This document shows positions 9,860 through 34,896 of a DNA stretch of 64,000 nucleotides, piece after piece. The stretch spans positions 154,002-218,001 of the forward strand of contig DCYT01000001.1 of the NCBI GenBank assembly GCA_002331145.1. Reading direction: 5' to 3'. Numbering within the stretch: position 1 is the stretch's first letter; each line of letters opens with the position of its first letter. Source of the stretch: Candidatus Minusculum obligatum (GTDB lineage: Bacteria; Patescibacteriota; Minisyncoccia; Phycocordibacterales; Phycocordibacteraceae). The translations under genes were made by a program, and so were the position numbers. The notes under the pieces are model-generated. The model saw nothing but the letters and a program-made list of their open reading frames with translations, did no database searches and was not told the origin of the DNA.

Positions 9860-10039
9860 CCTAAGTCTACACTCGCAGAAATCTACAGTCTGATGCAGCA
9901 GAAAAACCTACCAGATCCAAACGTTTTCTTCGTTCTGTAATACGATCTCACGAACTGAAATATTCCGAAGCTAGCTCTCATTCATTGATTAGAGACTATT
10001 CTTTTGCCCAACATGCATCACTTTAATAGCAAGCGCATA

Positions 10040-16291: not shown

Positions 16292-16767
16292 GCCACGACC
16301 TCCTTTTCATTTGCGCTCGCCGATGCAGAGTGCCGGGCACTCGTGCGGCGAAATTGCAGACGTTCACGCTCAAGCAGGCGATCGAGATTCCTCCAGGCAT
16401 CCGGCCCGCTTAAGACAGCGTCATATCCTGCCCGTTTGAGCGCCAGTACAACCATCGGGGGCACGAGACCATCGATCGTCAGCTTGCCGCCAATGACGAT
16501 CGTCGAGGCGCTGAACGCCTGATATTGCAGGAGCGTTTCCGCCAGCGCCAGACCGCTCAAAGCGCCGTGACCATTGACGGAGCTGATCACGGTCAGATCG
16601 GGCCGGTGATCGCGAACACTCTCGGCGACGTGTTCCGGCTGGGTGCAGCAGCCCAAATTCATCACGTCGAAGCCGCGATCGCGCAGCTCTAGCTCGACAC
16701 CAGTCAAATTCCAGATGTGGCTGTCGTCAACGGTAGACGCCACGATTGCTAACGGCTGGTAGGTCAT
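16288..16767 (-). CDS. glmS: Glutamate mutase (methylaspartate mutase) B12-binding subunit S. The start was taken at an internal Met to avoid overlap with glmE.
   Basis: Cobalamin-binding Rossmann-like domain (IVASTVDDSHIWNLTGVELELRDRGFDVMNLG...). It has small-subunit size and sits directly after the E subunit, consistent with the GlmE/GlmS pair. Confidence 0.6.
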   Translation of the reverse strand: MTYQPLAIVASTVDDSHIWNLTGVELELRDRGFDVMNLGCCTQPEHVAESVRDHRPDLTVISSVNGHGALSGLALAETLLQYQAFSASTIVIGGKLTIDGLVPPMVVLALKRAGYDAVLSGPDAWRNLDRLLERERLQFRRTSARHSASASANEKEVVA

Positions 16768-16771
16768 CGCA

Positions 16772-19718: not shown

Positions 19719-22700
19719 ATGCCTGGGTCTAACCCAAGAAAAAACCGGAACTTCACGGCCGCGGCATGGGAAAGTGTTCTCACTTGGCGAACCCTAAGCG
19801 ACCATGAGCGTGCGTCAATAAAGGCGAGCAAGAACGACCCGGATCGCGAGAAGCTGCGCCTCGCGGGCAGCTACTATGACCGCCACGAAGTTAAAAAGAA
19901 CGGTTGGATCTACGGCGAGGCGGATAACGGGATGGAAGTCTCGGAAACCGGCCTTGGTTGGAAGTTCCGTGCGCGTATCATCTGGCATCTGTTTGAAGAG
20001 ATCTCGACCTATCCAGGCCTAGAGATCAAAGATCTCCAGGATCTCGTTCGGGATCACGATGATCAAGTGACATCCGTCACTCGTAGTGCTGCCTCCAGCG
20101 GCCCGAAACCCGAAGCAATCCGCTTAGATTATCTTTGCGACCTCGGGTACCCGGGCAAACCTGCCATGTATGAGCGTAGTTTCAATGCGCTGCTTCGCTG
20201 TGCATTCGACACGTTTGTCCAGAAAGCCAATGAGAAACTGGACTTCGAAACATTCGTTAAGCGTTGCAAGGAAACTCCACTCACCGACCGCGACGCGCCG
20301 GCCCAATTCCAACGCTTGCTAAGCCGCGGTTTCGTGGACATCCAATCGCAATTCGATATCAAGCCCGAACGAAATCTCTATAGCCTCGATCTGCGTCAGC
20401 CAGCGCTCGACGCGCTGGCAACATTTCTGCGGAAGTCAGATTATCGTCCAGTTCAAACGGTGCACAGCAAGAACAATCGAAGTGCGCTGACGGCGATCGC
20501 CGACCGGATCCACCGGATTGGCGTCGAGTATCAAACGAAGAGTGACGATGGTGATCTAGTCGCCAAGACTTATTTGCTCGCTGGAGATCAGCGCCCTTGC
20601 CTTTACCTCCGAGCCTCGCGCGTCAGCAAGGAGCGGCCCGTCACCCTGCCGCAGCTCGTCGGCAAACTTAAAGCCTTCTACCTCGGCGAAGCGGTGGAAA
20701 CCGCACCGACACCAACATCGCACGCGGAGTATCTGTCCGCGCTGAAATTCGTCCGTTCCGCGGTCATGCAAACGCCAGCGATCATAGTGTTCGATGGTCA
20801 TCGCTCCCCACGCGGTTGGCCGACCGCCCTGCCGAGCCTCATCTCTGATGATGGATTGTCGACGCTCCTGCGCGATTTACTGACGCCGCGCCTCAGCCAA
20901 CGCGATGCGCAACTAGATGTCCGCGCGTTCTACAAAACCCGCATCCTGGTATTGACGGACGACGAATTCTCAGAGGACGGCGAGGGTAAGAAACCGCCGC
21001 TTCAGGTACACCCGCTACAGCAACAGAAACCGATCAACATTGTCGCCCCCGATCCGGACGATATCCCTCAGCTGATCGACGACCACAAATGGCAGAATAA
21101 AACGAGCTTGAAGAGCATCGCTCAAAGCCGGTCAGCGAGCTTCGTCGATGGTGCGGTGCTGCGATTGACCGACACTTGGTTGACCGTTGTCGGTCACACA
21201 TACAATTTGGAGCGGGATCGAAACAGCGCGCTCAATTCCCTTCTCGGAAACTCATCTCGCGATTTAGCGGACGCGATGAACGAGCACCTGCTCGAAAACA
21301 AGCCTTCCGCGTTCTTGCTCCTGCGATGGATTGCGCTCGCGGAAAGCGAGATCCGCGCCTCGACGCTCGCGCGCCTCCTGACGAGTTGGAATTATCTCGC
21401 AGCCAAACGCAGCAAACGCCAGGGACAGTCCGGGATTGCACAAGCGAAAGCCGTGCCCACGAAAGATATCGTTAAGCTTCTGGAACCATTTGATTCCATT
21501 CTAACCTACGGACCAGATGAAAGTATGGACGGGCTTGATGGCCCTTACTTTCCACCGATCGAACGAATTCCGATCGCACGCAAAAAATCATCGCCCATCC
21601 CCGCCTATCGTCGAACTCGCTCTTACTCTTTCGTGACGAATCAAATCTGTTCGGATTTTCTGGAGTTTCGCCGCGATGACGACGCGCTGGAGGCTGAGCG
21701 GCTTGACATGTACCGGCTCCTCGCCGAGGAAGCCTTCCGGCAAGAAGCGGCGATCATGCGTCATGCACCGCGAGCTGCGTCACTAAACGTCCGCCGCCTG
21801 CGCCGCATGTGTGAAGGGCTTCATTACGGGTTTGCCAGCTTGCCCAACGATCCGTCGAGTATCGACCAGTCGCTGCGCGTCCTAAGCCGAAGTCTCGCCG
21901 TAAATCCGAGAAACGCATTCAATCATTTGTATCTAACTTTTTACCGGCACGTCTTGCAGCATGCGCCAGATTTTGCACTGACCCGCAATTTGGGGCGGCC
22001 AGCAATCGCTTCCGATCTCATCATGAGTGCGGTTTGGTGCGGCATTCGCAACCCGCCGGTCCACCGGACTACTAGTCTACCGCCAACCAATTCCCCGTAC
22101 TTGAACCCAGACCTCAGCAGGTCTGAATCACACAACCTGCCCGATAATGGGATACGCGAAAAGAATACGCACAAGGCACTCGCCAAAGACATCTATGTCT
22201 CGCTAATTCGCAACCTCATCAACGCAAACCGCCTGGACCTAGCTCATTCGGCGCTTGAGAAGGCCAAGGAAAACTGGACCGGTCCACGGGCCAACGGCAC
22301 GGGCCTGGATGCCCTTTCGAAAGTCGAGATCGACTTGGAATTGCTGCGGACGGATCCATCGCGCAATATCGCCAATATCAAGGGGCTATTCGATAAAGTT
22401 CTTATCGCGGGACCGCGCAGATGGCGCCTACTGAAATATCGAATTGAGAAAACAGTGCGCTGGCTGCCGAGCCGCCTCAATAAAGCCGGACCGTTTGAAG
22501 ATCTGACCAATGTCTACGACTTTCATCATCAGCTAAAGTCCGACATCAAGGCAGCGGCGGTTCAACTGACCCGCGGCATGAGCACACAGGATATTGAACG
22601 CGGTGCGGATCTATTCGCGCGCCTGGCCGAAGCGGAAGCCATACGAGCAGACAGTAGCTCAGACAACACGGATAAGATCGCGCTATCACGCTTCGTAACC

Positions 22701-23453
22701 GCTTGGGGCTTTTTCCATGTGGCAGAGGTTCTGCGGGATCAAGTCTTTCAAACCGACCCGTTGGGCCGGGACTACTTACCGAACCCGCATACCAACCGGG
22801 TCTTCGTGCGGGTTAGCTTGAAGCTACATACCATTCTCCGAGATCACACGCGACGATCGGCTCCAGGCTTATTGCTCGGCGCAGAAGGAGACTGGAGGGG
22901 TTCAGACGAGGGCACAACGTTGAAGCCGAATGCGTGCAGTCTGCTCGCTCAGTTCTTTGCCTATCAAGCCCAAAAACAGCTAGATCTCGTAACCCGGTTT
23001 CAGTTTCAGTTTTTGGCCGAAAGACCGAGTTTGCTCATGAGCGAGGCCGCTGTGATACGCACAGTTCGCGACGCGCCGGAAAAAGCTCTGGTTCTTCTCG
23101 GCGAAGCCGACGATCTCATCGCCGGCAATATGGATCGGCCGAGGCTGACCTTCCGCCTCGCGCTAGAGCGCGCCAAGGCGCTCCGGCAATTGGCGAAAAA
23201 ACCTGATGAGCCGTCGCGGCAGGCCATGCTGCTGATCGCAGCGGCAACGGAAACGCTGCGCTTAGAAGCCTTGCAGCAACGCGATGACGAGGGTGATCAA
23301 CGGGCGACGGGCGAGCGCCTGTGGAAGTTTGTGACGGTCCAGCAGAAAGCGGCGGTTAAGAAGAGCATTCAAGAGCTACGTAAAGCGCTTGGCAAAGAGC
23401 TTCACCAAGAAGACGACAAGGAACTTGAGCAACTCTGCAATTTGCTTTCCTAA
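19719..23453 (+). CDS. Large orphan hypothetical protein (1244 aa), mostly alpha-helical, with no recognisable catalytic motifs.
   Basis: Single uninterrupted ORF. It is preceded by a 460-bp AT-richer spacer with hairpins and RBS-like GGGGGA before the ATG. No Walker A, nuclease or methylase motifs were found. The C-terminal half is repeat-like helical. Codon GC is slightly lower than in the neighbours. Confidence 0.7.
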   Translation: MPGSNPRKNRNFTAAAWESVLTWRTLSDHERASIKASKNDPDREKLRLAGSYYDRHEVKKNGWIYGEADNGMEVSETGLGWKFRARIIWHLFEEISTYPGLEIKDLQDLVRDHDDQVTSVTRSAASSGPKPEAIRLDYLCDLGYPGKPAMYERSFNALLRCAFDTFVQKANEKLDFETFVKRCKETPLTDRDAPAQFQRLLSRGFVDIQSQFDIKPERNLYSLDLRQPALDALATFLRKSDYRPVQTVHSKNNRSALTAIADRIHRIGVEYQTKSDDGDLVAKTYLLAGDQRPCLYLRASRVSKERPVTLPQLVGKLKAFYLGEAVETAPTPTSHAEYLSALKFVRSAVMQTPAIIVFDGHRSPRGWPTALPSLISDDGLSTLLRDLLTPRLSQRDAQLDVRAFYKTRILVLTDDEFSEDGEGKKPPLQVHPLQQQKPINIVAPDPDDIPQLIDDHKWQNKTSLKSIAQSRSASFVDGAVLRLTDTWLTVVGHTYNLERDRNSALNSLLGNSSRDLADAMNEHLLENKPSAFLLLRWIALAESEIRASTLARLLTSWNYLAAKRSKRQGQSGIAQAKAVPTKDIVKLLEPFDSILTYGPDESMDGLDGPYFPPIERIPIARKKSSPIPAYRRTRSYSFVTNQICSDFLEFRRDDDALEAERLDMYRLLAEEAFRQEAAIMRHAPRAASLNVRRLRRMCEGLHYGFASLPNDPSSIDQSLRVLSRSLAVNPRNAFNHLYLTFYRHVLQHAPDFALTRNLGRPAIASDLIMSAVWCGIRNPPVHRTTSLPPTNSPYLNPDLSRSESHNLPDNGIREKNTHKALAKDIYVSLIRNLINANRLDLAHSALEKAKENWTGPRANGTGLDALSKVEIDLELLRTDPSRNIANIKGLFDKVLIAGPRRWRLLKYRIEKTVRWLPSRLNKAGPFEDLTNVYDFHHQLKSDIKAAAVQLTRGMSTQDIERGADLFARLAEAEAIRADSSSDNTDKIALSRFVTAWGFFHVAEVLRDQVFQTDPLGRDYLPNPHTNRVFVRVSLKLHTILRDHTRRSAPGLLLGAEGDWRGSDEGTTLKPNACSLLAQFFAYQAQKQLDLVTRFQFQFLAERPSLLMSEAAVIRTVRDAPEKALVLLGEADDLIAGNMDRPRLTFRLALERAKALRQLAKKPDEPSRQAMLLIAAATETLRLEALQQRDDEGDQRATGERLWKFVTVQQKAAVKKSIQELRKALGKELHQEDDKELEQLCNLLS

Positions 23454-23462
23454 ATCGTGGCA

Positions 23463-25391
23463 TCAAAAAAGCAGCTGACCAGATGCGAACCTCATCCGCT
23501 TCTCCAAATCCCGTTGGCGATGGTTCGGGACAGATTTGCCAGCTTCCCAACGGCCAATAGTTCGCCCATCGACACCTATCCATTTCCCAAACTCATTCTG
23601 TGTCCACCCCCGTATCGCTCGGAAACGATATAGTCGCTCGCCGAACGAGGTGTTCGGCAGCCAACCATCGCTCTCGAGTAGCTCGATTACCTTTGGAAGG
23701 TGCTTGATCCTCGGTTCATGCTCGCCGCGCTCCCACAGACCAATCATCTCATGATGTACGCCGAGGCGATGCGCGAGCTGTCGCTTGGTCACGCCGAGTT
23801 CTCGCCGCCTTTGAAACAGTTGCTCGCCAACTGATCCGACCGCTATATCGGCGTACTCGGTATTTCGCCCCCAAAGGCTCAGAGGCCTGTTGGGGAAAAA
23901 GATGCAGCAACCCAACGTATTCTTCATGTAATTCCCGTCGTCTTGTTGGGAAGGGACATAGTGAAGGTGAATCGCTATGTCCCTTCCCCCTATTACGATT
24001 TGGTCGGTGATCGCCTCGATCACCGACCTTTTTTGTTCGAAGGTTAGTTCGTCCCAACGGTCATAGAGGGTTCTAGCGCCTGAGATGATCTCCTCACTGG
24101 AGTCTGAGGTCACGCGGAGCGCTGCAACTTCGCCCTCGATGGCAGCTATGCCGAGGGCGAGTTCATCGATCCGCTCCCCCATCTCCTTGTCGAGCGGCGT
24201 AAAGCGTGTGGCTTCCACCTCTTCATCCAGATACCCACGAAGCAGCTTCTCACGGTCTCTGCCGAGCTGGGATCGCTCCTTCTCCAGAGCCTGGATCTGG
24301 GCTTCTTTCGCGTTGACTTCGTCGAGGGTCGTTTTGAGGAAATCTGCCAGCTCTTCCGGAGACGCGAAGAAGGCGCGAAGCCGGTCACAGAAAATCGCCT
24401 CAAGATCATCTTGAGGAATTTTGCGACGGCACTTCCGGCAAACGAATTTCGGTGACTCATTGAGGACGTACATTGTCTCGCCGTCCGCCTCGCATTTCAC
24501 CTTCCCGGAGAACAGGTAATTGCCCCGCGGCCCTGGCGATCGCCCTTCGCGTTGTTTCTTCAAAATTGCGTTGCAGCGCTCCCAAAGCTCCGGTGCGACG
24601 ATCGCCTCGCAAGGATGCCATTCCCACTCATCCTCTGGCTTGATCGAGACCTTGCCACCGCGCTGATCGGCCGTCGTGTAGTTGCAGCGGCGCAATCCCT
24701 TCGCTGCCGGATCGACGAGCAAGAGTTGAATGGACTGGATTGAGAACTTGTTGCCTCGGCGCGTGCGAAAGCCTCGCTCATTGAGAATGCGCGCGACGGT
24801 TCCTTTGCGCTGGTATTCCGCGAAGAGCTCGTAGGCGAGCGCGCGAACCGGCGCTTCGTCCGGATGGGGTAAAAACTCATCCCCGACCCAGTGGTAGCCA
24901 TAGGGTGCCGCACCGGCGACTTTTCTGCCCATCTTTGCGCGGGTGACGACGGCGGCCTTGACGCGATCAACAATCTCCTCGCGCTCCCACTCCGCCAGCC
25001 CGGCAATCATCGTGTAGAAGAGCCGGCCTGACGGCGTGGTGGTGTCGATGCTCTCTTGCAAGGAGATGAGGTCGGCATTGTGCTCGCGGAAGAACTCGGA
25101 GACTTCCAGCAGACCTTTGGTGCTACGAGCCAGGCGCGCCAGCTTGGAGAAGACCAATGCCGAGATGCGGCCGGTTCGAACGTCGTCCAGCATCCGCTTG
25201 GCTTCAGGATGGTCCATAACCGCTTTTCCGGACACCCCAGAGAGGTCATAGACCTCCGCGACCGACCAACCCTTGAACTGCGCATACTGCTCGGCGCGCG
25301 CCTTGTGAGTGGCTGGGCTGTCGCCCTTGGCTTGGTCTTCCGTCGATACGCGAATCCAAACGCCGACCGATCTGACATCCTGTTGGTGCAT
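23463..25391 (-). CDS. Large serine recombinase with C-terminal tandem XRE-family HTH domains.
   Basis: N-terminal resolvase domain with catalytic VWIRVSTEDQ. Recombinase domain and zinc-ribbon (CEADGETMYVLNESPKFVCRKC) plus a coiled-coil. The last about 110 aa carry two Cro/C1-type HTH (LGVHHEMIGLWERGEH; FGKWIGVDGRTIGRWEAG). Confidence 0.85.
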   Translation of the reverse strand: MHQQDVRSVGVWIRVSTEDQAKGDSPATHKARAEQYAQFKGWSVAEVYDLSGVSGKAVMDHPEAKRMLDDVRTGRISALVFSKLARLARSTKGLLEVSEFFREHNADLISLQESIDTTTPSGRLFYTMIAGLAEWEREEIVDRVKAAVVTRAKMGRKVAGAAPYGYHWVGDEFLPHPDEAPVRALAYELFAEYQRKGTVARILNERGFRTRRGNKFSIQSIQLLLVDPAAKGLRRCNYTTADQRGGKVSIKPEDEWEWHPCEAIVAPELWERCNAILKKQREGRSPGPRGNYLFSGKVKCEADGETMYVLNESPKFVCRKCRRKIPQDDLEAIFCDRLRAFFASPEELADFLKTTLDEVNAKEAQIQALEKERSQLGRDREKLLRGYLDEEVEATRFTPLDKEMGERIDELALGIAAIEGEVAALRVTSDSSEEIISGARTLYDRWDELTFEQKRSVIEAITDQIVIGGRDIAIHLHYVPSQQDDGNYMKNTLGCCIFFPNRPLSLWGRNTEYADIAVGSVGEQLFQRRRELGVTKRQLAHRLGVHHEMIGLWERGEHEPRIKHLPKVIELLESDGWLPNTSFGERLYRFRAIRGWTQNEFGKWIGVDGRTIGRWEAGKSVPNHRQRDLEKRMRFASGQLLF

Positions 25392-25418
25392 ATCCTCACC
25401 GATACTCGAATTACGTGT

Positions 25419-25664
25419 TTAGAGCCAGTTGTGGCTCGCCCCGTCGATCAAAGTTGATACCGAGATATCCATCGTTCGCGCCGCGGCGAACAGGCGGGAT
25501 GCGCCCAGGCGCCCGCGGGCATCTTCGATCAACGCCAGGTGCGCGGGAGTAAGGCCAATCTCTCGAGCGAGATCATTGGTGCGTATTCCCTTGAGGCATC
25601 GCCAGAGACGCACCTGCCCGCCAATTCTCGTATCAATCGCGTCCTGCACGTCTGCCCCCGGCAA
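25419..25664 (-). CDS. XRE-family HTH transcriptional regulator.
   Basis: 81-aa protein with the motif LAREIGLTPAHLALIEDARG, typical of Cro/C1 HTH. Confidence 0.7.
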   Translation of the reverse strand: MPGADVQDAIDTRIGGQVRLWRCLKGIRTNDLAREIGLTPAHLALIEDARGRLGASRLFAAARTMDISVSTLIDGASHNWL

Positions 25665-25666
25665 CG

Positions 25667-26020
25667 CTATGGCTTGCCTGTGGACGCCTCAGCGTCACTT
25701 CCACGAAGGGCCGACCAGACCAGAGCCGCAATCGGAATGGCATGCGCCACGATGAAGATGAGCCAGACCATGGTCGGGCCACTCTCCCCTTCGGTGAACT
25801 CGTGCGTCATCAGCCGGAATGTCGGGCTGAGGAACAACACTTTCACGCCGGACAAGACCACGGTGATGATCGTGAACAATCGCTCGCCGAAAAAGGCGCC
25901 AAACGCGACCAGGCCGAGCGCGATCCCGCCGACGTACAGACCGTAGATCGGGATGATCAAAGAAATAAGAAGGATGACGAAGCCGGCGATCGCAAGGCCA
26001 GCCGCTGCTTGCTTGTTCAT
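25667..26020 (-). CDS. Small integral membrane protein.
   Basis: 117 aa with three transmembrane helices. Its start is adjacent to the stop of the upstream gene. Confidence 0.5.
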   Translation of the reverse strand: MNKQAAAGLAIAGFVILLISLIIPIYGLYVGGIALGLVAFGAFFGERLFTIITVVLSGVKVLFLSPTFRLMTHEFTEGESGPTMVWLIFIVAHAIPIAALVWSALRGSDAEASTGKP

Positions 26021-26051
26021 TTTGAATGTCCCCTATGAGTTTGCGAGCGCG

Positions 26052-26375
26052 CTATCGGCACGCGTAGGCAGTTCCGACCCATTCGTTCGTGAGGCTGGTC
26101 CCGCGCTCGCGCCAGACCACGTGAGTGGCTCGAAGGTGAGCGGCTTGATTGAGGGCGGCGTTTTGCGCGTGTGTCCGGCCCACCGAGGCGCTCAAGCCCA
26201 CGAAGACCGCATTGGACCCGGACACGCTGCCAAGCTCCTCACACCCGGCTACGTCGCTCGCTCGCGCATCGATGATGGAGGTTTCAACGGGCGTGGCACA
26301 TCCGGCCAGGCTGAGAACTCCCGCTGCCAAGCTGCAACCTAGCACGGCCTGACGACACCAACTCTGCTTTTTCAT
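26052..26375 (-). CDS. Lipoprotein of unknown function.
   Basis: The signal peptide ends in the lipobox LSLAGC. 107 aa. It is the first gene of a minus-strand operon that starts 14 bp from inverted repeat IR-A-left. Confidence 0.55.
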   Translation of the reverse strand: MKKQSWCRQAVLGCSLAAGVLSLAGCATPVETSIIDARASDVAGCEELGSVSGSNAVFVGLSASVGRTHAQNAALNQAAHLRATHVVWRERGTSLTNEWVGTAYACR

Positions 26376-26388
26376 CGCTATCTCCTGC

Positions 26389-26415
26389 TGTGAACACTTT
26401 GGGGTAGAGTGTTCA
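26389..26415. repeat. Recombination core-type site A-left: 8-bp inverted arms GTGAACAC / GTGTTCA around an 11-bp asymmetric spacer TTTGGGGTAGA.
   Basis: The sequence TGTGAACACTTTGGGGTAGAGTGTTCA was read directly. Its reverse complement recurs at 27060-27088, a 26-bp perfect match. Confidence 0.8.
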
Positions 26416-26461
26416 TCGTAGTATTTCGCCCGTCAAGAAAGAAATAGGCCACCGGCCCACC

Positions 26462-27058
26462 TTGGCGCGCTTCACATCCATGATTTTCGATCTTCACGGC
26501 AACAGGAAGTACCTCACGCCTGCCGAGCGGGAGAGGTTTATCAATGCTTGTTATGCATTGCCTGAAGAAGAACAAACCTTTTGCCTCGCCCTCGCGTTTT
26601 CCGGATGCCGGATATCGGAGGCGCTCGCCTGCACTCCTGGTCGGGTCGACCGGGATATGCAGGCGCTAGTTATTCGATCGCTCAAAAAGCGTGTTGATGA
26701 GCCAGTATATCGTGCTGTTCCCCTACCTTCATGGCTTCTCGATAAGTTTAGCAGGCTCAGCGAAGGTTTGGATCCTCACCAGCGTTTGTGGCCCTGGGGC
26801 CGCACCCACGGTTGGAAAACTATCAAGCGCGTGATGAGCGCTGCGAGGATATCTGGAATGCATGCGACGCCGAAGGGGTTGCGCCACGGGTTTGGGGTGG
26901 CAGCGGTTCAAAGCGGAGTGCCGCTAAATCTGGTGCAGAGGTGGCTTGGTCACGCAAAGCTGGAAACAACCGCGATCTACACCAATGCGATTGGTGATGA
27001 GGAGCGCGCTATCGCCGCTCGGTTATGGGGCGACGTACAGCCCAAGCAGGCCGCCTGA
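26462..27058 (+). CDS. Short tyrosine recombinase (FimB/FimE-sized, 198 aa); putative DNA invertase.
   Basis: C-terminal catalytic region LRHGFGVAAVQSGVPLNLVQRWLGHAKLETTAIYT (R...H-x-x-R...Y). The gene lies entirely between inverted sites A-left and A-right. Confidence 0.8.
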   Translation: MARFTSMIFDLHGNRKYLTPAERERFINACYALPEEEQTFCLALAFSGCRISEALACTPGRVDRDMQALVIRSLKKRVDEPVYRAVPLPSWLLDKFSRLSEGLDPHQRLWPWGRTHGWKTIKRVMSAARISGMHATPKGLRHGFGVAAVQSGVPLNLVQRWLGHAKLETTAIYTNAIGDEERAIAARLWGDVQPKQAA

Positions 27059-27059
27059 C

Positions 27060-27088
27060 TGTGAACACTCTACCCCAAAGTGTTCACG
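27060..27088. repeat. Recombination core-type site A-right (inverted copy of A-left).
   Basis: TGTGAACACTCTACCCCAAAGTGTTCACG. The spacer is the reverse complement of the A-left spacer, so the two sites are inverted relative to each other. Confidence 0.8.
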
Positions 27089-27172
27089 AATACTTTAGCG
27101 CTGTCAGTGGATCCCTCCAAGTGAAGTAGTGGACCATAGACACCAAAAAAAGATTGGGTAATAATTCATTTA

Positions 27173-27199
27173 TTTGAATACTATAGTGCATAGCGTTCA
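27173..27199. repeat. Recombination site B-left (TTTGAATACTATAGTGCATAGCG).
   Basis: 21 of 23 bp identical to the reverse complement of 29953-29975. It shares the TGAA(C/T)AC half-site with the A sites. Confidence 0.65.
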
Positions 27200-28009
27200 A
27201 TGTGGTGACTGGCTCTCGATTCGGGTCAACGCTTGTTGAACACCCCGCAGCGCCTCTCGACGCCCTTCGAGAACGAACGACGCATCTGGCCCACGGCACC
27301 GGGTCCAATCCGACAGCTCTGGCAAATTTTCTGTGATCGCTGCTTCCGACGAAACCTGAACTTGATCGATGATATCGGCGTTTGCACTCAAGTGCTCATC
27401 CACACCAAATCCGGACACGCGAGCCTTGTTAAGGTCCAGCGATATCCTGGCTGCCTTTCCGAACATCTCTACCACGGCTCGGAGTTCTTCAGGCGACACT
27501 CCGATATGCAAGGGCGTCCGATGTTGGCCGGTCGCGGAAGTCAAATAGTACGAGCCATTTTCAATTAGGAGCGGCATCTGTCGACTGGCTGCGTAGTCAC
27601 CGAGTTCACGCATTGATGGCTCAGCGTTCCGCCAGTAATTCTTGGTCTGCTGCTCCTGGGACCTCCATCCGCCAAACATATACCCGGTATGGATGGTGAC
27701 AGAACGGCCGCCAATGTCCTTCGCCAAATCAATAACCGACCTGACAACAGCCTTGGAGGAGTCGCGGACCTCAGGCACGAGTGAAGTGTAATTGATGTCG
27801 TAATAGACGCTGTGAACGTGAAGTTCGACTCCGAGACTTTCGGCTAAGGCACGAAGGCTTGATCTACGCTCACTGTCGAATTCCACAATGAGATTTGGAG
27901 TTTGATCGGGAATTAGCTGAACCGCAGAAAATTCTTGCTCCGCTGCAGCCACAATAAAGTCTTCAAACCGCGACCCATAGGCTCTCGAATATGACAATAT
28001 CGTGTTCAT
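27197..28009 (-). CDS. Xylose-isomerase-like TIM-barrel protein (sugar-phosphate isomerase/epimerase, AP-endonuclease-2 fold).
   Basis: 270-aa protein with a TIM-barrel pattern (VQLIPD..., ...HVHSVYYDINYTS..., TIHTGYM..., PLLIENGSY). Confidence 0.55.
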   Translation of the reverse strand: MNTILSYSRAYGSRFEDFIVAAAEQEFSAVQLIPDQTPNLIVEFDSERRSSLRALAESLGVELHVHSVYYDINYTSLVPEVRDSSKAVVRSVIDLAKDIGGRSVTIHTGYMFGGWRSQEQQTKNYWRNAEPSMRELGDYAASRQMPLLIENGSYYLTSATGQHRTPLHIGVSPEELRAVVEMFGKAARISLDLNKARVSGFGVDEHLSANADIIDQVQVSSEAAITENLPELSDWTRCRGPDASFVLEGRREALRGVQQALTRIESQSPH

Positions 28010-28012
28010 GAT

Positions 28013-29263
28013 TTAGATTATATTTCTTATGTATTCAATTATGGAGCCGATATTCTCCCCATATACCATTCTCGCTATTCCGAATAAATATACCACAATA
28101 ACAAACGAATATGTTATCCATTTCTTGAATATTTTTGGCCTCACCTTGATCATATAAAACGGAATCAACACCATTGGCGCGACAACAATTATGTCCAGGT
28201 AACTCGGGGCCGACAGATAAAATCTGTGAAGTCCAAACATAATGATGACCGCTAAGCATACAAAAAACCAAAACGCCGCCCGGTACAAATGAGCCGGCAT
28301 TATCGTCGCCCAGCGGCTATGCACTTTGAATTTCACAAAATCAGGCTCTTCGAGTTTCGGCTGCACGATAGTCGCGTCCACTCGAAGCGTATCCCGTGAT
28401 GGATCAAATCCGCGCTGAATGGCATTCAGCGTCTCCGCGGCCCAGAACTGAACGCGCACTGTCCGCCCAGAAGAACGCCCGCTCTCTGTCCAACCAGCTC
28501 CGTTGAGATGCGTACTGTTTATCCATCGCACGGCCTGGGAAATACTTTCGCCGTAAACAGGCACCCCTAGTGCAATCATAGCTGGAATGATTGCGTAGGC
28601 ATCGCAGTGCTTCCATAGCGTGCCATCGACACGCGCCTCAAAGAAGCCCCATGAGAACGGCGCTTCGAATTGATCGCGAACGGCCTCAAAATCTCCCGGG
28701 TCGAAATCACGACAACAAGCCAGCGCTTGAATTGCGTACCCCGTAGCTACCACAGTCGGCTCATCGTCGCTGGCAAGCGACCAAGAATTTCCGCGCCGTT
28801 GAACGCGGAGCCACTTCGCCGCATTGCTAATTTCATCATCAAACTGTTCAGCAAGCGAAAGCGCCTTTGTTGCCAGGTGCGTCGAAAACACATCTGACTG
28901 ATCGTCAGCCGCCGTGGCACCCCATCCCCCATCACTGTTAACCGCTTGGAGAAGATGATTTATCGGACCGGTAGCGAGCGAGGCTGCATCTGGCCTGTTA
29001 GCCCAATAGCAAGCCATTGCGGCGAACGCTGAAAAACGGGTGCGCGCACCACGCTCCTCAATATGACTCGCGTAAACGTCGAGGAGGAAGTCCAGCCCCG
29101 ACAGAGCCGTATCTTCATCGCCAGCAAGTTTAAGTACACGAATTGCCTCAGCAGTATTTACGATTGAACTCGGTTGCTGATGGGTCAATCCCCAGCCGCC
29201 GTTGTGATTGCGATTCTTTCGCAACCAACGCGCAGCAGATTCTAGTTGAGTTTCATACGGCAT
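28013..29263 (-). CDS. Prenyltransferase/squalene-oxidase-repeat (alpha/alpha-toroid) protein fused to an AT-rich C-terminal multi-transmembrane extension.
   Basis: Repeats NHNGGWGL, NSDGGWGAT and NGAGWTESG. The last about 100 codons are conspicuously AT-rich and encode three or four transmembrane helices (FWFFVCLAVIIMFGL...). Confidence 0.6.
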   Translation of the reverse strand: MPYETQLESAARWLRKNRNHNGGWGLTHQQPSSIVNTAEAIRVLKLAGDEDTALSGLDFLLDVYASHIEERGARTRFSAFAAMACYWANRPDAASLATGPINHLLQAVNSDGGWGATAADDQSDVFSTHLATKALSLAEQFDDEISNAAKWLRVQRRGNSWSLASDDEPTVVATGYAIQALACCRDFDPGDFEAVRDQFEAPFSWGFFEARVDGTLWKHCDAYAIIPAMIALGVPVYGESISQAVRWINSTHLNGAGWTESGRSSGRTVRVQFWAAETLNAIQRGFDPSRDTLRVDATIVQPKLEEPDFVKFKVHSRWATIMPAHLYRAAFWFFVCLAVIIMFGLHRFYLSAPSYLDIIVVAPMVLIPFYMIKVRPKIFKKWITYSFVIVVYLFGIARMVYGENIGSIIEYIRNII

Positions 29264-29332
29264 GGCAGTCTCTATCTATTTCACATGCTAGCGGCTGACG
29301 GCTTAACTCGCACCAGCTTAGATGGTCGGTCT

Positions 29333-29890
29333 TTAACCCCACATGCGAGACGCGATCAGTCGTTCTTCCTCGCCAACTGCATTTGCGTAGATGGCCGTCG
29401 TTTCCATCTTAGCGTGCCCAAGCCATTTTTGAACCAGGCTAAGCGCCACTCCGCATTGTATCGCGTTTACACCAAATCCGTGCCGCAGCCCCTTAGGAGA
29501 CGCGTGTGCGCCGACGATTTTCGCGGCTGACATGACGCCCTTGACCTTGCTCCAACCAGTGGTGCGGGACCACGGCCACAGGCGATCCGATTGCTCTAAC
29601 CCCGCTGCTCGAATGTATTCCTTCAATTCCGCAATCACGCTCGGCGGAACTGGCACAGCTCGGAATTCCCGCCGTTCGCGCTTCTTGAGACTCTTGAATA
29701 TGACGACGCAATCTGTGTCGTCGACTAGATCGACTGTCGTCGCCAAAGCCTCGGAAATTCGGCATCCGGTAAACGCCAACACGACGCAGAAGAGCCGATC
29801 GGCAGCTGCAAGTTTCTCGGACAAGCTCAGAAAGCGCGCCCGCTCGGATCGATTAAGGTACATTCTCGCTCCAGCGTTGGAATACATCAT
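29333..29890 (-). CDS. Second short tyrosine recombinase (185 aa), a paralog of the first (about 60 % identical).
   Basis: LRHGFGVNAIQCGVALSLVQKWLGHAKMETTAIYANAVGEEERLIASRMWG. The whole protein is colinear with the first recombinase. It lies inside the B-left / B-right inverted pair. Confidence 0.8.
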   Translation of the reverse strand: MMYSNAGARMYLNRSERARFLSLSEKLAAADRLFCVVLAFTGCRISEALATTVDLVDDTDCVVIFKSLKKRERREFRAVPVPPSVIAELKEYIRAAGLEQSDRLWPWSRTTGWSKVKGVMSAAKIVGAHASPKGLRHGFGVNAIQCGVALSLVQKWLGHAKMETTAIYANAVGEEERLIASRMWG

Positions 29891-29952
29891 AAAACTCTGC
29901 GCTAACCGAACCCGATTTCAAACGGTCTTGACGCGCGCTGTTAGCTGATAAT

Positions 29953-29975
29953 CACTATGCACTATAGTGTTCAAA
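29953..29975. repeat. Recombination site B-right (CACTATGCACTATAGTGTTCAAA).
   Basis: Inverted, near-identical copy of B-left. It contains GTGTTCA, identical to the A-site arm. Confidence 0.65.
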
Positions 29976-30028
29976 TTTAACTATGTTTCTTGAAAACACG
30001 CTATTTCACGCGGCACGGTGACCGGCGT

Positions 30029-32908
30029 TCAGTCGCCATCCTGAGGCGGTTTGTTCACACTCGACGCGATGATCTTCGCAACTGTTTCTCGGCGGTGTTT
30101 GGCCTCTTCCTCAGAAACCGGCGTATAGCGGGTCGTTACCTTCCAGCCTCGCACGACGGTCTCGTCGACGGTGAGCTTGGCAGCTCGCGCATTGATTAGT
30201 TCGGTCAGCTCATCAGGCCCGATGATTGAGCAGGACTGTGTGTTGGCTTGATCAAGGTGTTCCTGGATATGGGCGCGATATCGCGTACGCCGGCCAACAT
30301 CCGGGACAACCAGGATGACCTCGTCAAATCCAGCCTTGAAGCATTTTTCAACATTACGCAGCTCAGCGTCTGCGGTGTTTGAGACGGATATCTCAACCGC
30401 GATCGAAAGCTTTTCGTGTTCGAGCCCGACATCGACGCTCCCGCTGCCGTCCAGAACGGTTTGCTCGACCGTCGCCTTGAACCCACGCGCTTGGGCCAGC
30501 TCTCTCACCCATTGCTGCAACCGTCTGTGTTGGCGCCCTCCCACGCCAGCCGCGTATGCATCGATTTCCGCCTTGCGGGTCTCTTTCACATTCTCCTTGG
30601 GGGCTGCATCCTTCTTCGCCGGATCGGATCGAGCCTCGTCTCCAGGTGCATCGGGTTTTTTGGCGCTAGCGGTGTGATCTGGCGCGGAGGGTGGGTCTTC
30701 AGCCCGCTTAGCGGGTGGAGGTGCTTGGTTCTCGGTATGCCGCGTTGGCTCTGTCGGCTCAGGCGCCGCGGGATTATCAGGAGCATCGGCCGCTTCGATC
30801 AGCGCCTCGATCTCATCCAAGGTGCTGCAATAGCGCTCCCGATTTTGGTCGAGAAGGCGGTAATATGCGTCGTCGTCGAGCGAGGCTTGTGTGTTGACCA
30901 AGCCAAGCTGGACATCCATGCGCAAGGCCTGTTCGGTCACACCCTTGGCGTAAACCGCAAACTCAGTGCGGTCGCGGCGCTTGCGCATGGACTGGATCAT
31001 GCCGGCGTCAACGCGCATGTCCTCTGCCATTGCCCGCGCATCCTTGGCCGATACGCCACCAGCAAACTTGATGGAGGTCGAGGCCATGACCGTCGAGCGC
31101 AGGCGCGTTGGCATCTGATCGAGGTGTTGAGCGGCGATGTGAAGGCCCACGCGGTATTTTCGGGCCTGGTTGAAAAGCTGCTCAAGCGTCTCATCGAAGT
31201 AGTCGTGAGCTTCATCGATATAGACATGCACGCGCCGGCGCGCATCTTCCTCCAAGGTCGCCCGCTCAAGGGAGGCCTGGGCGATCTTCGCAATGAAGAA
31301 GCGCCCGAAGATGGAACACCCATCGGCCTTGAGGAGATCTTTGGCCGTATTGATCAGGATGATCTTGCCGGCACTCATCGCTTCGAAGACGTCGAGTTTG
31401 TTTTGCGGGTGCGAGAACATTCGCTCAAATACCGGATTGGCGAGCACGCCCCAAAGCCGTCTCAGAATTTGTTTTTTGGTCGCCGAAAAGCTTGGCGCGA
31501 AGAACTCGGTCTGAAAGAAGCGTTTGGCTGATCCGTCGAGCTTTTGCATATAGGGCCTGAAGGGTTTGCCATCCTCCATCAGCGCGCGCAGCGTTTGAAC
31601 CGTCGCATCGGGAATGACCATCATCAGCCGAGCCAGATAGCGAAAGACGACACCCTGCTTTTGCGTGAGCTCCGCCCCCAATAGCGCCGCGAAGAAATAC
31701 TCATAAAGATCTATGACAGAGTTGAGGACGCGCTCCCTATCGGCCCGGGAATAGCCCTCGAGCCGGTCATGATCGAAAGCGAATAAATTGAGCGCGACTG
31801 GAAACTCCACATCGCTCGGATCGATCAAAACCAGCCGGTCGGCCAACCCTTCCGCGAGATAGGGATCAAAGAGTGCCAGTCGCGAGATCGTCTGAATGAG
31901 ATCGCCCTGGCTATCGATCACGATGACGCCAGGCGCGCAGTCTGCCCCCCTAACCAGATCATGATGGATCAGCTTGAGCAGGAGTTGGGTCTTGCCATGT
32001 CCGGACCCACCGACAATGAGCGCATGCTCACAGCGAAGCTCATCAGGCAGAAAGACTGGAACATGTGCCTCAAGCAGGCCCTGAAAGGGCGTATGACGCA
32101 AATAGGTCTCAACCAACTCAGCGGGACTATCGAAGCGGGCGTCTGCAGGCAGGATATAGGGCCGGGTGGGTGCCGGGTCTTGCGGGTTGATGTTGGAGGC
32201 CAGTGCCAGATTGGCCATCAGCTGCGTCCGGCAATCGAAGAAAAGTTCGTTCATAAAGGCGGGACCGCTTTCGCTGCAGACCTCCCGGACCCAGTCATCC
32301 ATCACGTCGGCCGGGTTTTCGATCATGCCCGCGAGTGGCACTTCAAGCGCAACCGCATCGGCTGAATGCTCATCATCAATGGCGGACCGCTCCGCGACTG
32401 CGTCCAGAACGCTGGCACACATGTGCAGCAGTAAGCCCTTTAAAAGGGGCAGGCGCTTATCAAAAAGATCAAAGAGCCGCTCACGCCGCAGCAAATAGCT
32501 GCGCAGCTCCACCCGCGTTCGCATCGGCAAGGCCGCGATCTCGGTGGGTGGGTCATCGTAGCGCGGATACCAATAGCATTCTTCGATGAGGACATGATCG
32601 ATCAGGTCAAAAAGCGCCTCTGCGAGCGCTCCTGAATAATGGGCATCGCTAGCATGCCAGGCACCGCTTAAAACTTCGGTGATCAGATCAAACCGGTTTT
32701 CAAGTGGGCCTTCCAGCAGCGCATCCTGTCGCGCCTCCAAACGCGCATGCAGGTCCACCAGCTCCGCCAGCTCACGGTCGCGCTCACTCATGCCCCAGCT
32801 GGAAAAAAGGCCTCGCCCGACTTTGGGGCCGAGCGAGGGCATATTGGCAGAACTATTCCAGCCTTCTTGCCAGGCCTTGGCGATCTCGGAGAAAAAGTCT
32901 CCCGCCAT
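30029..32908 (-). CDS. Large cytoplasmic FtsK/HerA/TraD-superfamily P-loop ATPase (959 aa) with a long N-terminal helical region and a C-terminal alpha/beta, possibly nuclease-like, domain.
   Basis: Walker A LIVGGSGHGKTQ and Walker B VHVYIDEAHDYF. The C-terminal about 150 aa (GSVDVGLEHEKLSIAVEISVS...FDEVILVVPD) is loosely PD-(D/E)xK-like. A low-complexity Pro/Ala/Lys linker is present. No transmembrane helix. Confidence 0.7.
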   Translation of the reverse strand: MAGDFFSEIAKAWQEGWNSSANMPSLGPKVGRGLFSSWGMSERDRELAELVDLHARLEARQDALLEGPLENRFDLITEVLSGAWHASDAHYSGALAEALFDLIDHVLIEECYWYPRYDDPPTEIAALPMRTRVELRSYLLRRERLFDLFDKRLPLLKGLLLHMCASVLDAVAERSAIDDEHSADAVALEVPLAGMIENPADVMDDWVREVCSESGPAFMNELFFDCRTQLMANLALASNINPQDPAPTRPYILPADARFDSPAELVETYLRHTPFQGLLEAHVPVFLPDELRCEHALIVGGSGHGKTQLLLKLIHHDLVRGADCAPGVIVIDSQGDLIQTISRLALFDPYLAEGLADRLVLIDPSDVEFPVALNLFAFDHDRLEGYSRADRERVLNSVIDLYEYFFAALLGAELTQKQGVVFRYLARLMMVIPDATVQTLRALMEDGKPFRPYMQKLDGSAKRFFQTEFFAPSFSATKKQILRRLWGVLANPVFERMFSHPQNKLDVFEAMSAGKIILINTAKDLLKADGCSIFGRFFIAKIAQASLERATLEEDARRRVHVYIDEAHDYFDETLEQLFNQARKYRVGLHIAAQHLDQMPTRLRSTVMASTSIKFAGGVSAKDARAMAEDMRVDAGMIQSMRKRRDRTEFAVYAKGVTEQALRMDVQLGLVNTQASLDDDAYYRLLDQNRERYCSTLDEIEALIEAADAPDNPAAPEPTEPTRHTENQAPPPAKRAEDPPSAPDHTASAKKPDAPGDEARSDPAKKDAAPKENVKETRKAEIDAYAAGVGGRQHRRLQQWVRELAQARGFKATVEQTVLDGSGSVDVGLEHEKLSIAVEISVSNTADAELRNVEKCFKAGFDEVILVVPDVGRRTRYRAHIQEHLDQANTQSCSIIGPDELTELINARAAKLTVDETVVRGWKVTTRYTPVSEEEAKHRRETVAKIIASSVNKPPQDGD

Positions 32909-32913
32909 CGTGG

Positions 32914-33318
32914 TCAGGCCGGCTCGATCTCGACAATCTGTTCGGACCCGTCAAATTGCCGCGCGACATCGATATAGCCGCGAATGTTCCGGCAGGCTTG
33001 ATGAACCTGGTTTTCCGTGGCGACCACCTCGTTCAGATCCTTGCATTCCAAGTGCTGGCCACTCACCAGGTCGCCGAGCGAAAAAGAGCGCTTCGTCACG
33101 CGGTCCATGAGCGCGCCGCCCAGGCCGGCCCAGCTTCCCGCTTCTGATTTTGCGAGGTTTTGGTCAGCCGCCTCGGATGTGTAAACGAGTTGGCCTTTGA
33201 GCTTGTACTTTTTGACCAGCTCGGCCTCCTCGTCGGTCAGTTCAGCCATCACGTCGAGAATGAAAATCGGTGTTCCGGTCAGTCCTGATTTTTGGCTACG
33301 GCGTAGTTTGAGTTGCAT
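32914..33318 (-). CDS. Small hypothetical protein (about 133 aa) encoded between the two ATPases.
   Basis: The ORF is tightly packed between the ATPase genes (6-bp gap downstream). No recognisable motifs. Confidence 0.45.
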   Translation of the reverse strand: MQLKLRRSQKSGLTGTPIFILDVMAELTDEEAELVKKYKLKGQLVYTSEAADQNLAKSEAGSWAGLGGALMDRVTKRSFSLGDLVSGQHLECKDLNEVVATENQVHQACRNIRGYIDVARQFDGSEQIVEIEPA

Positions 33319-33399
33319 CTCTGCCTCCCCTGTTATTCGCGTCAAGCGCGAACCGATCAAAGCAAGACAACCTAAAAGAGTCGAGATAAATTTGGCGAT

Positions 33400-34602
33400 C
33401 TATAGTTTTGCCATGGATTTCAACACGACATCGGGCAACACGGTACAGGCACTAAAGGGCTTGGACGGGTTCCCATCGATCAGCAGGCGCAAGTAAATCT
33501 GCTGATTGGCCAGATTGATCATGTCGAGCCGAGCAAACTTGGGATCAAACTCCTTGGCCAAGTATCCCGCATCCTCCGCGCCCACCCGAAAAGCGATGAG
33601 CGTGCCGGCATTACCCAGCGCGGCCCGGCGGATATCCGGATCGATCTGATGGAGATATTGATGGGCCATCGTCAAGCCGAGCCGGTATTTGCGTAGCTCG
33701 GAGAGCATCTGGGCGATCGCCAGGGTCGTGAAGTTCTGAAACTCATCGACATAGACAAAAAAGTCCCGTCGGTCGGCTTCCGGAATACTGGCCCGGGAGA
33801 ACGCAGCAACCGCCAACATGGTCGTCAGGACACCGCCAACCAGACGCGTACTGTCCGCGCCCAATCGCCCCTTGGCGAGGTTCACGATCAAGACCTGTCC
33901 CTCATCCATGATTTTGCGAAGCCGGATCTGTCCCCCATCATCGGTGAAAAAGCGCAAAAGCCGCGGGTCCGCCAATAGCGCCCCGACTTTGGATTGAACC
34001 GGCGCGATGGCGTCAGCCTGATATCGATAAGAGTATTTGGGAAACTCAACCTGCCAGAAGCGTTTGATGGTCGGGTTTTCAATGTGCGGCAAAATGGATC
34101 GGCGATAATCCGCGCTGGTGAGCAATTTGAGCAAGTCCGGCAAATGGGCTGATGGCTGGTCAAGCAGGGCCATGATCGCATTGCGCAAGACATGCTCCAT
34201 GCGCGACCCCCAAGCATCCGCCCACATCATGCGAAAGACATCCAAGAGGCTGGCCGCCACCAATGGCCGCAAAACACTGGGTACCCGCGCAAACGGATTA
34301 TACGCCAAGGCGCAGTCCGGATCGGCCGGGTCAAGATAGACGACATCCTCGCGGCCCAGAGCTTTCGCGTGAGCCAGGCAGCGTTCGGCCAGGTCGCCAT
34401 GCGGATCGAGCACCGCGCAGCCGGCCTCATCCATCACATCGCCTGCAATCAGGGTCTCCAGCAAAGTCGTCTTGCCGGTACCGGTCTTGCCGATGATGTA
34501 GACATGAGAGAAGCGATCCTCAGTCTTGATCCCGAAAAGCCGCGTGTCGATGCGAAATCGGACACGGGCAAATCGGCGGACATTGGCGGCAAGATCTGAC
34601 AT
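33400..34602 (-). CDS. FtsK/HerA/TraD-superfamily P-loop ATPase (about 400 aa), a paralog of the ATPase core of the 959-aa protein.
   Basis: Walker A VYIIGKTGTGKTTL and Walker B FFVYVDEFQNF. Its blocks are colinear with the 959-aa protein (KYRLGLTMAHQYLHQ versus KYRVGLHIAAQHLDQ). The start was chosen at the Met just before the P-loop. No transmembrane helix. Confidence 0.7.
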   Translation of the reverse strand: MSDLAANVRRFARVRFRIDTRLFGIKTEDRFSHVYIIGKTGTGKTTLLETLIAGDVMDEAGCAVLDPHGDLAERCLAHAKALGREDVVYLDPADPDCALAYNPFARVPSVLRPLVAASLLDVFRMMWADAWGSRMEHVLRNAIMALLDQPSAHLPDLLKLLTSADYRRSILPHIENPTIKRFWQVEFPKYSYRYQADAIAPVQSKVGALLADPRLLRFFTDDGGQIRLRKIMDEGQVLIVNLAKGRLGADSTRLVGGVLTTMLAVAAFSRASIPEADRRDFFVYVDEFQNFTTLAIAQMLSELRKYRLGLTMAHQYLHQIDPDIRRAALGNAGTLIAFRVGAEDAGYLAKEFDPKFARLDMINLANQQIYLRLLIDGNPSKPFSACTVLPDVVLKSMAKL

Positions 34603-34896
34603 GCCCTTCAGTGTGCGCCAGGACGGGCTATCCCCGCAGACTGGGTGCGGCGCGCTTTGCGCGCCTTTGTCCTGACCAACCAGACAGAGATCGACTTTAC
34701 CAGAGGCTTCATGTGTGCACCGCCTGTCAGGGCTCCTCATCGCGCCTAGCGCTGTGCGCCGCCGATCGCAACCCGGCAAGCCGGGTCCTTCGCTTCGCTA
34801 CGGTCCATTGGATGCGCTCTGCGGCTTGAACACAGCGCTGGGTCTCTTCGTGTCGCCCGCATCCAGGCGGGCCTTCAAACCAGCGGAGAAACCCCG

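Follow-up and report, generated by a model that had tools for sequence, protein, structure and literature searches.

Two side-by-side inversion modules with compact tyrosine recombinases on a lower-GC island: an active switch and a candidate sister switch with cargo

We have identified two inversion modules, A and B, in a 64,000-nucleotide stretch of contig DCYT01000001.1 (assembly GCA_002331145.1, positions 154,002 to 218,001 of the forward strand). This stretch is hereafter called the window, and coordinates are given in its numbering unless a comparison contig (L001, L002 and so on) is named. Module A is a real, active switch whose invertible segment, 672 bp comprising a leader and the recombinase gene int1, inverts in natural populations; the window's own strain shows both junction types. 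Module B is a cargo-carrying sister of unproven activity, in which a 2.77-kb segment holds the paralogous recombinase gene int2 together with two cargo genes. It is likely that the two are independent modules, lying side by side on a mobile island, and that each is run by an internally encoded tyrosine recombinase consisting of the catalytic domain only. Both enzymes belong to a very large, unnamed and uncharacterised family of ~190-amino-acid tyrosine recombinases, about half of whose sampled loci are paired with inverted sites. Most work on invertible switches has concerned gut Bacteroidota, Firmicutes and enterobacteria. The switches described here adjoin lipoprotein operons, pilus and EAL-domain genes, and conjugation genes, and may provide phase-variable control of mobile-island genes in abundant marine bacteria. 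A compact recombinase with a 27-bp site is also a candidate genetic tool, and its recombination site seems to serve as a promoter as well.

Recombination sites, enzymes and the inversion of segment A

The core pattern TGAACACT-N9-AGTGTTCA has exactly four matches in the 64-kb window when up to three mismatches are allowed, against 0.13 expected, and none of 100 shuffled sequences reached four. These four core sites, of the form TGAAYACT-N9-AGYGTTCA, make up two inverted pairs, one around int1 and the other around int2 and its cargo. Pair A is a perfect 26-nt inverted repeat (26390-26415 and 27062-27087), and pair B is a 22-nt inverted repeat of 95% identity (27172-27193 and 29955-29976) that brackets three minus-strand genes. 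An earlier, sequence-only reading of this DNA had placed the repeats at these positions, which are borne out. That reading had also described the modules as nested, when they in fact lie next to each other, separated by an 86-bp spacer (27088-27173), and had parsed each site as 8-bp arms around 11 bp, which is better read as 9-bp arms around a 9-bp asymmetric centre. Written as arm, centre and arm, the int1-proximal A-left core site (26390-26415) is GTGAACACT / TTGGGGTAG / AGTGTTCA, and the int1-distal A-right core site (27061-27087) is GTGAACACT / CTACCCCAA / AGTGTTCAC, whose centre is that of A-left in reverse complement. The four A arms show perfect conservation. The B-left core site (27174-27200) reads TTGAATACT / ATAGTGCAT / AGCGTTCAA and the B-right core site (29948-29974) reads ATAATCACT / ATGCACTAT / AGTGTTCAA, the inner arm of the latter (ATAATCACT) being degenerate. 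The A centre and the B centre each occur once per strand in the window. Recombinase monomers would bind the ~9-bp TGAAYACT-type arms and exchange strands in the asymmetric centre; since the paired sites have reverse-complement centres, recombination would invert the DNA between them.

The gene int1 (26480-27058, plus strand) lies wholly inside segment A and encodes 192 amino acids in the version used in public gene calls, while int2 (29333-29890, minus strand, 185 amino acids) lies at the far end of segment B, next to an ATPase operon. The two proteins are 54% identical. In a profile search they matched PF00589 with 59 bits (int1) and 60.3 bits (int2) against a cut-off of 27.1, with no hits to PF00239. 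The domain spans residues 16-176 of the 198-amino-acid int1 open reading frame (ORF), and covers essentially the full length of both recombinases. Identity as a serine invertase of the Hin/Gin type was rejected, as int1 and int2 match PF00589 only. Residues R44, K69, R135, H158 and Y167 of int1 align with R148, K172, R247, H270 and Y279 of XerD (1a0p) and with XerA (4a8e). These catalytic residues are invariant in 14 family members, and int2 has all the invariant family residues; the catalytic Tyr, which had been singled out as something to be checked by proper alignment, is thus kept in both enzymes. The first His of the HxxR motif (His-II) is Lys132 in int1 and is replaced in this way throughout the family (PKGLRH), leaving five of the six catalytic residues canonical. 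The earlier description of the enzymes as FimB/FimE-sized holds for their size and single-domain build, and does not extend to membership of the FimB/FimE family: the cut-offs for NF007370 and NF007371 are 221 and 222 bits, and the scores were 30.6 and 25.8 bits for int1 and 22.3 and 20.4 bits for int2. The alignment of int1 to NF007370 covers model positions 9-179 of 200, and there is no N-terminal core-binding domain. Judged from their sequences, int1 and int2 would work much as FimB/E-type enzymes do while standing outside that family.

Both orientations of segment A are found at a single locus relative to the minus-strand lipoprotein operon (23463-26375) that abuts site A. In L001 (ENA) and L002 (JGI), which are 95-97% identical to the window, the int1 segment is opposite relative to this operon. 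Positions 460-1158 of L002 correspond to window 26389-27087 in forward orientation, 1133-1881 to 26415->25667, and 353-486 to 27196->27062; both junctions of this flip fall within the repeats and both conserved flanks are present. L099 (Logan, a single 37.5-kb contig, 90-93% identical) is forward over 9912-10608 with both flanks reversed, and its flipped A sits between the ATPase operon and the lipoprotein operon. In all three contigs int1 stands co-directionally and directly upstream of the lipoprotein operon, as had been predicted for the inverted state. Two contigs that are 100% identical to the window, L086 and L102, are colinear with it and carry A in the window state; L102 starts exactly at the A-left site. 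In a further 100%-identical contig, the Tara scaffold L085, window 27062 is followed immediately by 26390->27116, which is a flipped junction; the scaffold then exits via the normal junction and ends 29 bp beyond the second 26-bp site. Such a path is what a mixed population leaves in an assembly graph, and it would need k-mers longer than the repeat. The inversion breakpoints of L002, L099 and L085 all lie inside the A-left core site. The invertible unit proposed by the sequence-only reading is found in both orientations with breakpoints in the repeats.

Misassembly at a short inverted repeat could be invoked instead, with the orientation differences as artefacts and the repeats as inert relics. 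In its favour, assemblies are the source of all the evidence, L085 finishes in an odd hairpin-like structure, and short contigs start or stop at A sites. We find this explanation scarcely credible, given complete two-junction flips in single contigs from three independent pipelines and samples (L002 from JGI, L099 from Logan and L001 from ENA), a 26-bp repeat that is shorter than the final assembly k-mers, four perfectly conserved A arms, and the same phenomenon in two other genera, including one isolate genome (L015). Alternatively, A could be a small insertion sequence (IS)-like mobile element with terminal inverted repeats and a tyrosine "transposase", its orientations reflecting independent insertions. 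int1 is exactly bracketed by inverted repeats, its family is large and often located on plasmids or in regions resembling integrative and conjugative elements (ICEs), and the ATPase-side sequence differs between the window, L001, L002 and L099 from the site edge on. However, in all relatives and in either orientation the element is found at one position, 14 bp away from one and the same lipoprotein gene; it is present as a single copy, with no further A-centre site in 64 kb; it has no target-site duplication (flanks CTGCT and GAATA); at each of its ends a pair of palindromic arms encloses an asymmetric centre, the build of a recombination core and not of a transposon end; and both junction types occur in a 100%-identical strain. 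Independent insertion is accordingly very unlikely, and we read A as a segment inverted in place by site-specific recombination.

Segment B, its cassette and exchange between the modules

The cargo of segment B comprises a xylose-isomerase-like TIM-barrel gene (27197-28009, minus strand; 270 amino acids, PF01261 at 77 bits) and a squalene-hopene-cyclase/prenyltransferase-like gene (28013-29263, minus strand; 416 amino acids, PF13249 at 34 bits, PF13243 and PF00432 just under threshold) whose product has a hydrophobic C-terminus. This pair recurs beside a family recombinase in L006, with 37% identity for the TIM-barrel protein. PADLOC, applied to the cargo and flanking genes, found no defence system for the cargo and only weak mad8/HerA matches for the ATPases. 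The TIM-barrel stop codon (27197-27199) lies within the B-left inner arm, such that gene and site overlap and the coding sequence would be unchanged by inversion. Beyond the other end of the segment, and co-directional into it, is an operon (30029-34779, minus strand) for a 459-amino-acid HerA/VirD4-like ATPase, a 148-amino-acid protein and a 959-amino-acid ATPase. Homologues of this operon are found beside family recombinases in L003, L007, L019, L071, L072, L093 and L099. Given its architecture, segment B is plausibly an invertible cassette. Of what the sequence-only reading had claimed for it, the inverted sites with int2 and cargo inside are upheld, and inversion has been seen in no assembly. 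Module B, built in the same way as A, would thus carry int2 and two cargo genes along with it, with a single state found so far. The databases hold no close relative of int2 for comparison, the next match being 58% identical.

Sites of the B type recur in other genomes with other contents. One with the same or a one-base-different centre (ATAGTGCAT) follows a homologue of the 959-amino-acid ATPase in L003, L019 and L093, and in L003 and L019 its inverted partner lies 3.0-3.2 kb away. The L003 cassette holds a recombinase 74% identical to int1 and a CN-hydrolase, and the L019 cassette holds a methyltransferase, a GreA-like protein and a P-loop kinase-like protein; in the three loci behind the same ATPase operon where cargo is visible (the window, L003 and L019), the recombinase differs and the cargo is unrelated each time. 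L099 is without int2 and without B sites, and has ATP-grasp and peptidase M15 genes instead. In L002 the 86-bp spacer is 76% conserved and again separates the A site from a B-type site. Beyond that site comes a different family recombinase directed into the segment; therefore, the recombinase end of a B-type cassette can lie at either flank. This A-proximal recombinase is the one hint that both orientations of B may occur. When JGI metagenome contigs were scanned for the B-type core, 12 matches came up, of which only L093 was a real relative; its polarity is that of the window, so it lends no support to an inversion of B. A speculative extension of these findings is that B-type sites form a docking frame for interchangeable cassettes of recombinase and cargo, as a natural means of cassette exchange and cargo capture on an integrative element, that head-to-head outward promoters could cross-activate the modules, and that the A switch could act as a gate for the serine recombinase of the island. 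We regard this proposal as improbable.

Shufflon-like exchange between A and B sites, which the sequence-only reading had considered conceivable on the strength of a shared half-site, does not hold up well. Whichever polarity is taken, 4 of 9 positions agree between the A centre TTGGGGTAG and the B centre ATAGTGCAT, and neither centre is present outside its own pair. Tyrosine recombinases such as Cre, Flp and lambda Int need matching overlap sequences for productive exchange. Because the centres agree at four of nine positions only, A x B recombination is unlikely. Either enzyme may nonetheless bind or act on all four sites, because A and B share arms; the int1-like enzyme of L003, which lies between B-type sites, was counted as support for such cross-binding.

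Flanking operons, a candidate outward promoter and the host island

The lipoprotein operon encodes, in order from site A and all on the minus strand, a lipoprotein with the lipobox LAGC (26052-26375), a small membrane protein (25667-26020), an XRE regulator (25419-25664) and a 642-amino-acid large serine recombinase with two helix-turn-helix domains (23463-25391), and this gene order is kept in L001, L002, L086 and L099. The first genes flanking the site are lipoproteins. The lipoprotein start codon is 14 bp outside A-left, and in L006 and L019 the first flanking gene is 15 bp from the site. All transcription of the flanking operon must cross the switch, because this gap fits a ribosome-binding site only. 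An alignment of diverged leaders contained one conserved block besides the site, GTCAAG, which corresponds to TTGAC(G/A) on the strand opposite the recombinase gene. In 12 of 12 clade loci, TTGACR stands exactly 17 nt from the inner-arm hexamer (AACACT, AACATT, AACAAT and similar). The candidate outward promoter P_out(A) (26408-26436, minus strand) would consist of the -35 element TTGACG (26436->26431), a 17-nt spacer and the -10-like hexamer AACACT (26413->26408), which is the A-left inner arm. Its counterpart P_out(B) (29928-29956, plus strand) has TTGACG (29928-29933), a 17-nt spacer and ATCACT (29951-29956), the B-right inner arm, which is the poorer of the two -10-like hexamers.

In the window orientation, P_out(A) faces the lipoprotein operon and P_out(B) faces the 3' end of the ATPase gene. 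Flipping A leaves a 43-bp gap between int1 and the operon behind it and turns P_out(A) to the variable region; when B is flipped, P_out(B) would face A. From this arrangement we infer that P_out is a sigma-70-type promoter firing outward through the recombinase-proximal site, and that the switch most likely redirects it. Module A would flip the leader and int1 as a unit, turning P_out(A) toward or away from the lipoprotein operon, and in the window state P_out(A) would drive into the lipoprotein, membrane protein, XRE and serine-recombinase genes, making this the presumptive ON state. The consequence of inversion had previously been sought in the placement of int1 upstream of the operon alone; that placement is correct, and inversion probably moves P_out as well. 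A weak terminator-like hairpin with a T-rich run lies directly upstream of P_out(A) on the same strand (26442-26462, minus), and might insulate P_out(A) from antisense read-through across int1. Separately, an inward promoter noted by eye in the 86-bp spacer (CTGACA-N17-AACACT) was rejected, as it is not conserved in L001, L002 and L099.

Both modules reside on a lower-GC island of ~21 kb (19300-40610) that ends at tRNA-Gln (40501-40574). A second large serine recombinase gene (39074-40609) abuts the tRNA gene, and the island also contains a ParB-like gene, a DUF3768 gene and two HerA/VirD4-like ATPase genes; it is probably an integrative mobile element. No Rfam match was obtained for window positions 18-40 kb, and no near-identical DNA was found in a plasmid collection. 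In the window, L001 (1-629), L002 (1-459) and L099 (5225-9911), the A element and the lipoprotein operon are 90-100% identical, and across A these four strains have four unrelated sequences, which diverge at or within 86 bp of the site (27088 side). This looks like a hot spot for cargo that has the recombination site as its boundary.

Given this setting, the flips could be real and mainly control the recombinase itself or the large serine recombinase, and with it excision and mobility of the island, instead of the phase variation of surface proteins through P_out. The operon behind site A ends in the 642-amino-acid serine recombinase, XRE and serine-recombinase genes follow the int element also in L004 and L099, the second serine recombinase sits at the tRNA-Gln end of the island, and the flipped state makes int1 and the operon one co-directional unit with a 43-bp gap. 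We nevertheless think it unlikely that mobility is the principal target, as the first genes after the site encode envelope proteins and the Sphingomonadales neighbour is an EAL-domain gene with pilin genes and not a recombinase gene. Control of mobility is compatible with a promoter-redirecting switch and does not exclude it.

Two further observations concern the surroundings of the modules. A 1244-amino-acid ORF at the island's left edge (19719-23453, plus strand) has no Pfam, NCBIfam or PADLOC match. Outside the island, the window encodes a 1412-amino-acid RHS-repeat protein (10040-14278, minus strand), a type II secretion secretin (7184-9166, minus strand) and a glutamate-mutase-like pair of MutE and a B12-binding subunit (16288-18121, minus strand).

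The recombinase family and comparison with known systems

Relatives of int1 number more than 5000 in databases, and those of int2 form 4425 clusters at E <= 1e-40; 543 relatives are found among GTDB species genomes, mostly of Alphaproteobacteria. Of 79 genome loci, 41 had an inverted repeat of at least 18 nt with its anchor no more than 260 bp upstream of the recombinase gene, compared with 7 of 128 control anchors. Three layouts were distinguished. In 15 loci the partner repeat lies just past the gene, as in A; in 5 loci it lies kilobases off with cargo in between, as in B; and in 19 loci it lies ~130 bp further upstream, enclosing a fimS-like segment of ~100 bp that leaves the recombinase gene outside. 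Recurrent neighbours include VirD4-like coupling proteins, relaxases, ArdC and ParA, which are typical of ICE and plasmid backbones.

Elements of the int-only layout are flipped in place, with breakpoints in the repeats, in two pairs of Sphingomonadales loci. The first pair (L012 and L015) is from Sphingomonas, L015 being the isolate genome of Sphingomonas trueperi DSM 7225. In the second (L075 and L076), a 932-bp segment is 100% identical and its flanks, 92% and 99.98% identical, are reversed. In Sphingomonadales (L012/L015, L075/L076, L031, L034-L038, L041 and L051) the immediate neighbour of the int-only element is an EAL-domain gene, followed by SCPU (Csu-type) pilin genes. The element occurs there in both orientations, divergent in 10 loci and co-directional in 3. 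Class-2 inner segments were compared in both orientations at 22 loci, where only two pairs could be aligned, and no orientation polymorphism was found. In Rhizobiales and relatives (L013, L014, L040, L042, L045, L061, L065, L066 and others; locus ~5750-5935), the recombinase gene stands beside a ~100-bp inverted-site segment in which a promoter-like motif (TTGATC-N17-TAxxxx) facing it was noted by eye, with VirD4-like and relaxase genes nearby; the loci compared showed no orientation polymorphism. Nine predicted viral or prophage contigs from IMG/VR (L103-L111) encode int1 relatives of 36-55% identity.

Other members have a different setting. Some are found on small Acetobacteraceae plasmids, flanked by a WGR-domain gene and parA, for example L131 (Komagataeibacter plasmid pKNA03, 4645-6596), and in six loci (L046, L048, L052, L056, L067 and L079) a single palindromic site (TGAAACAGAAT...ATTCTGTTTCA) touches the start codon of the recombinase gene. 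Such parA-linked and single-site members probably serve multimer resolution. As a whole, the family is best seen as a set of compact site-specific recombinases, with many members recruited as invertases. No described family of short alphaproteobacterial tyrosine invertases was found in the literature, in a search that was incomplete, so novelty is unproven. In one survey, inversion signatures were seen in none of four Alphaproteobacteria (PMC5903667).

Several points weigh against reading the locus as two independent, self-encoded inversion modules. The orientation states of A and B alike were read from assemblies. No inverted B occurs among the identical assemblies L084, L085, L086 and L102, all of which have the window orientation, and look-ups of int2 and of the TIM-barrel gene likewise gave B in the window state in every 100%-identical contig. 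The recombinase-proximal inner arm of B-right matches the consensus at six of nine positions. Cleavage positions are uncertain because the 9-bp centre is longer than the usual overlap of 6-8 bp. int1 is the presumed enzyme for flipping A, a role that could also fall to int2 or to a distant enzyme. A generic scan for sigma-70 promoters and terminators returned nothing convincing and did not call P_out, which is a motif match. The single-site members beside parA mean, finally, that the family is not exclusively one of invertases.

Among known systems, the fim switch (FimB/FimE acting on fimS) is similar in having catalytic-only recombinases of ~190-200 amino acids and short inverted repeats. As in fim, inversion here is expected to move a promoter beside envelope or fimbrial genes, with EAL and pilin neighbours in Sphingomonadales, and the 19 family loci with a ~100-bp segment beside the recombinase gene have a fimS-like layout. 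Unlike fim, modules A and B carry the recombinase gene inside the invertible DNA, so that it flips along; His-II is an invariant Lys in the family, and the -10 of the candidate promoter is a recombination arm. The hosts here are Alphaproteobacteria, the genes are often on mobile elements, and the enzymes are outside the FimB/FimE family. The Hin/Gin/Cin/Pin systems also have the recombinase gene within the segment, and an outward promoter of the Hin segment drives the flanking operon in one orientation only. Those enzymes, however, belong to the serine recombinases (PF00239) and depend on an enhancer and Fis, whereas those described here are PF00589 proteins with lox/FRT-like sites built as arm, centre and arm.

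Cre/loxP and Flp/FRT share inverted arms and an asymmetric centre that sets polarity, and in these systems, too, inverted sites lead to inversion. Their arms are 13 bp and those here ~9 bp, with a centre of maybe 7-9 bp, and int1 and int2 lack the N-terminal core-binding domain present in Cre. In nature Cre resolves plasmid dimers, and in the present family only the parA-adjacent members look similar in this respect. The Rci shufflons of IncI plasmids resemble the present locus in having a tyrosine recombinase and several inverted sites clustered on a mobile element. Shufflon sites, however, share a crossover core, such that any pair recombines and the coding segments of one gene are reshuffled, whereas the centres of A and B differ and no coding segments are reshuffled; at ~384 amino acids, Rci is also larger. 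The invertons of Bacteroides and Clostridioides (Tsr, RecV) are alike in that promoter inversion by tyrosine recombinases controls surface structures and both orientations occur in populations. They differ in recombinase family and host, and their recombinases lie outside the inverted DNA and often serve many invertons. The modules are placed as tyrosine-recombinase invertons that come nearest to fim in enzyme architecture and to Hin/Gin in layout, differing from the former in family and from the latter in chemistry.

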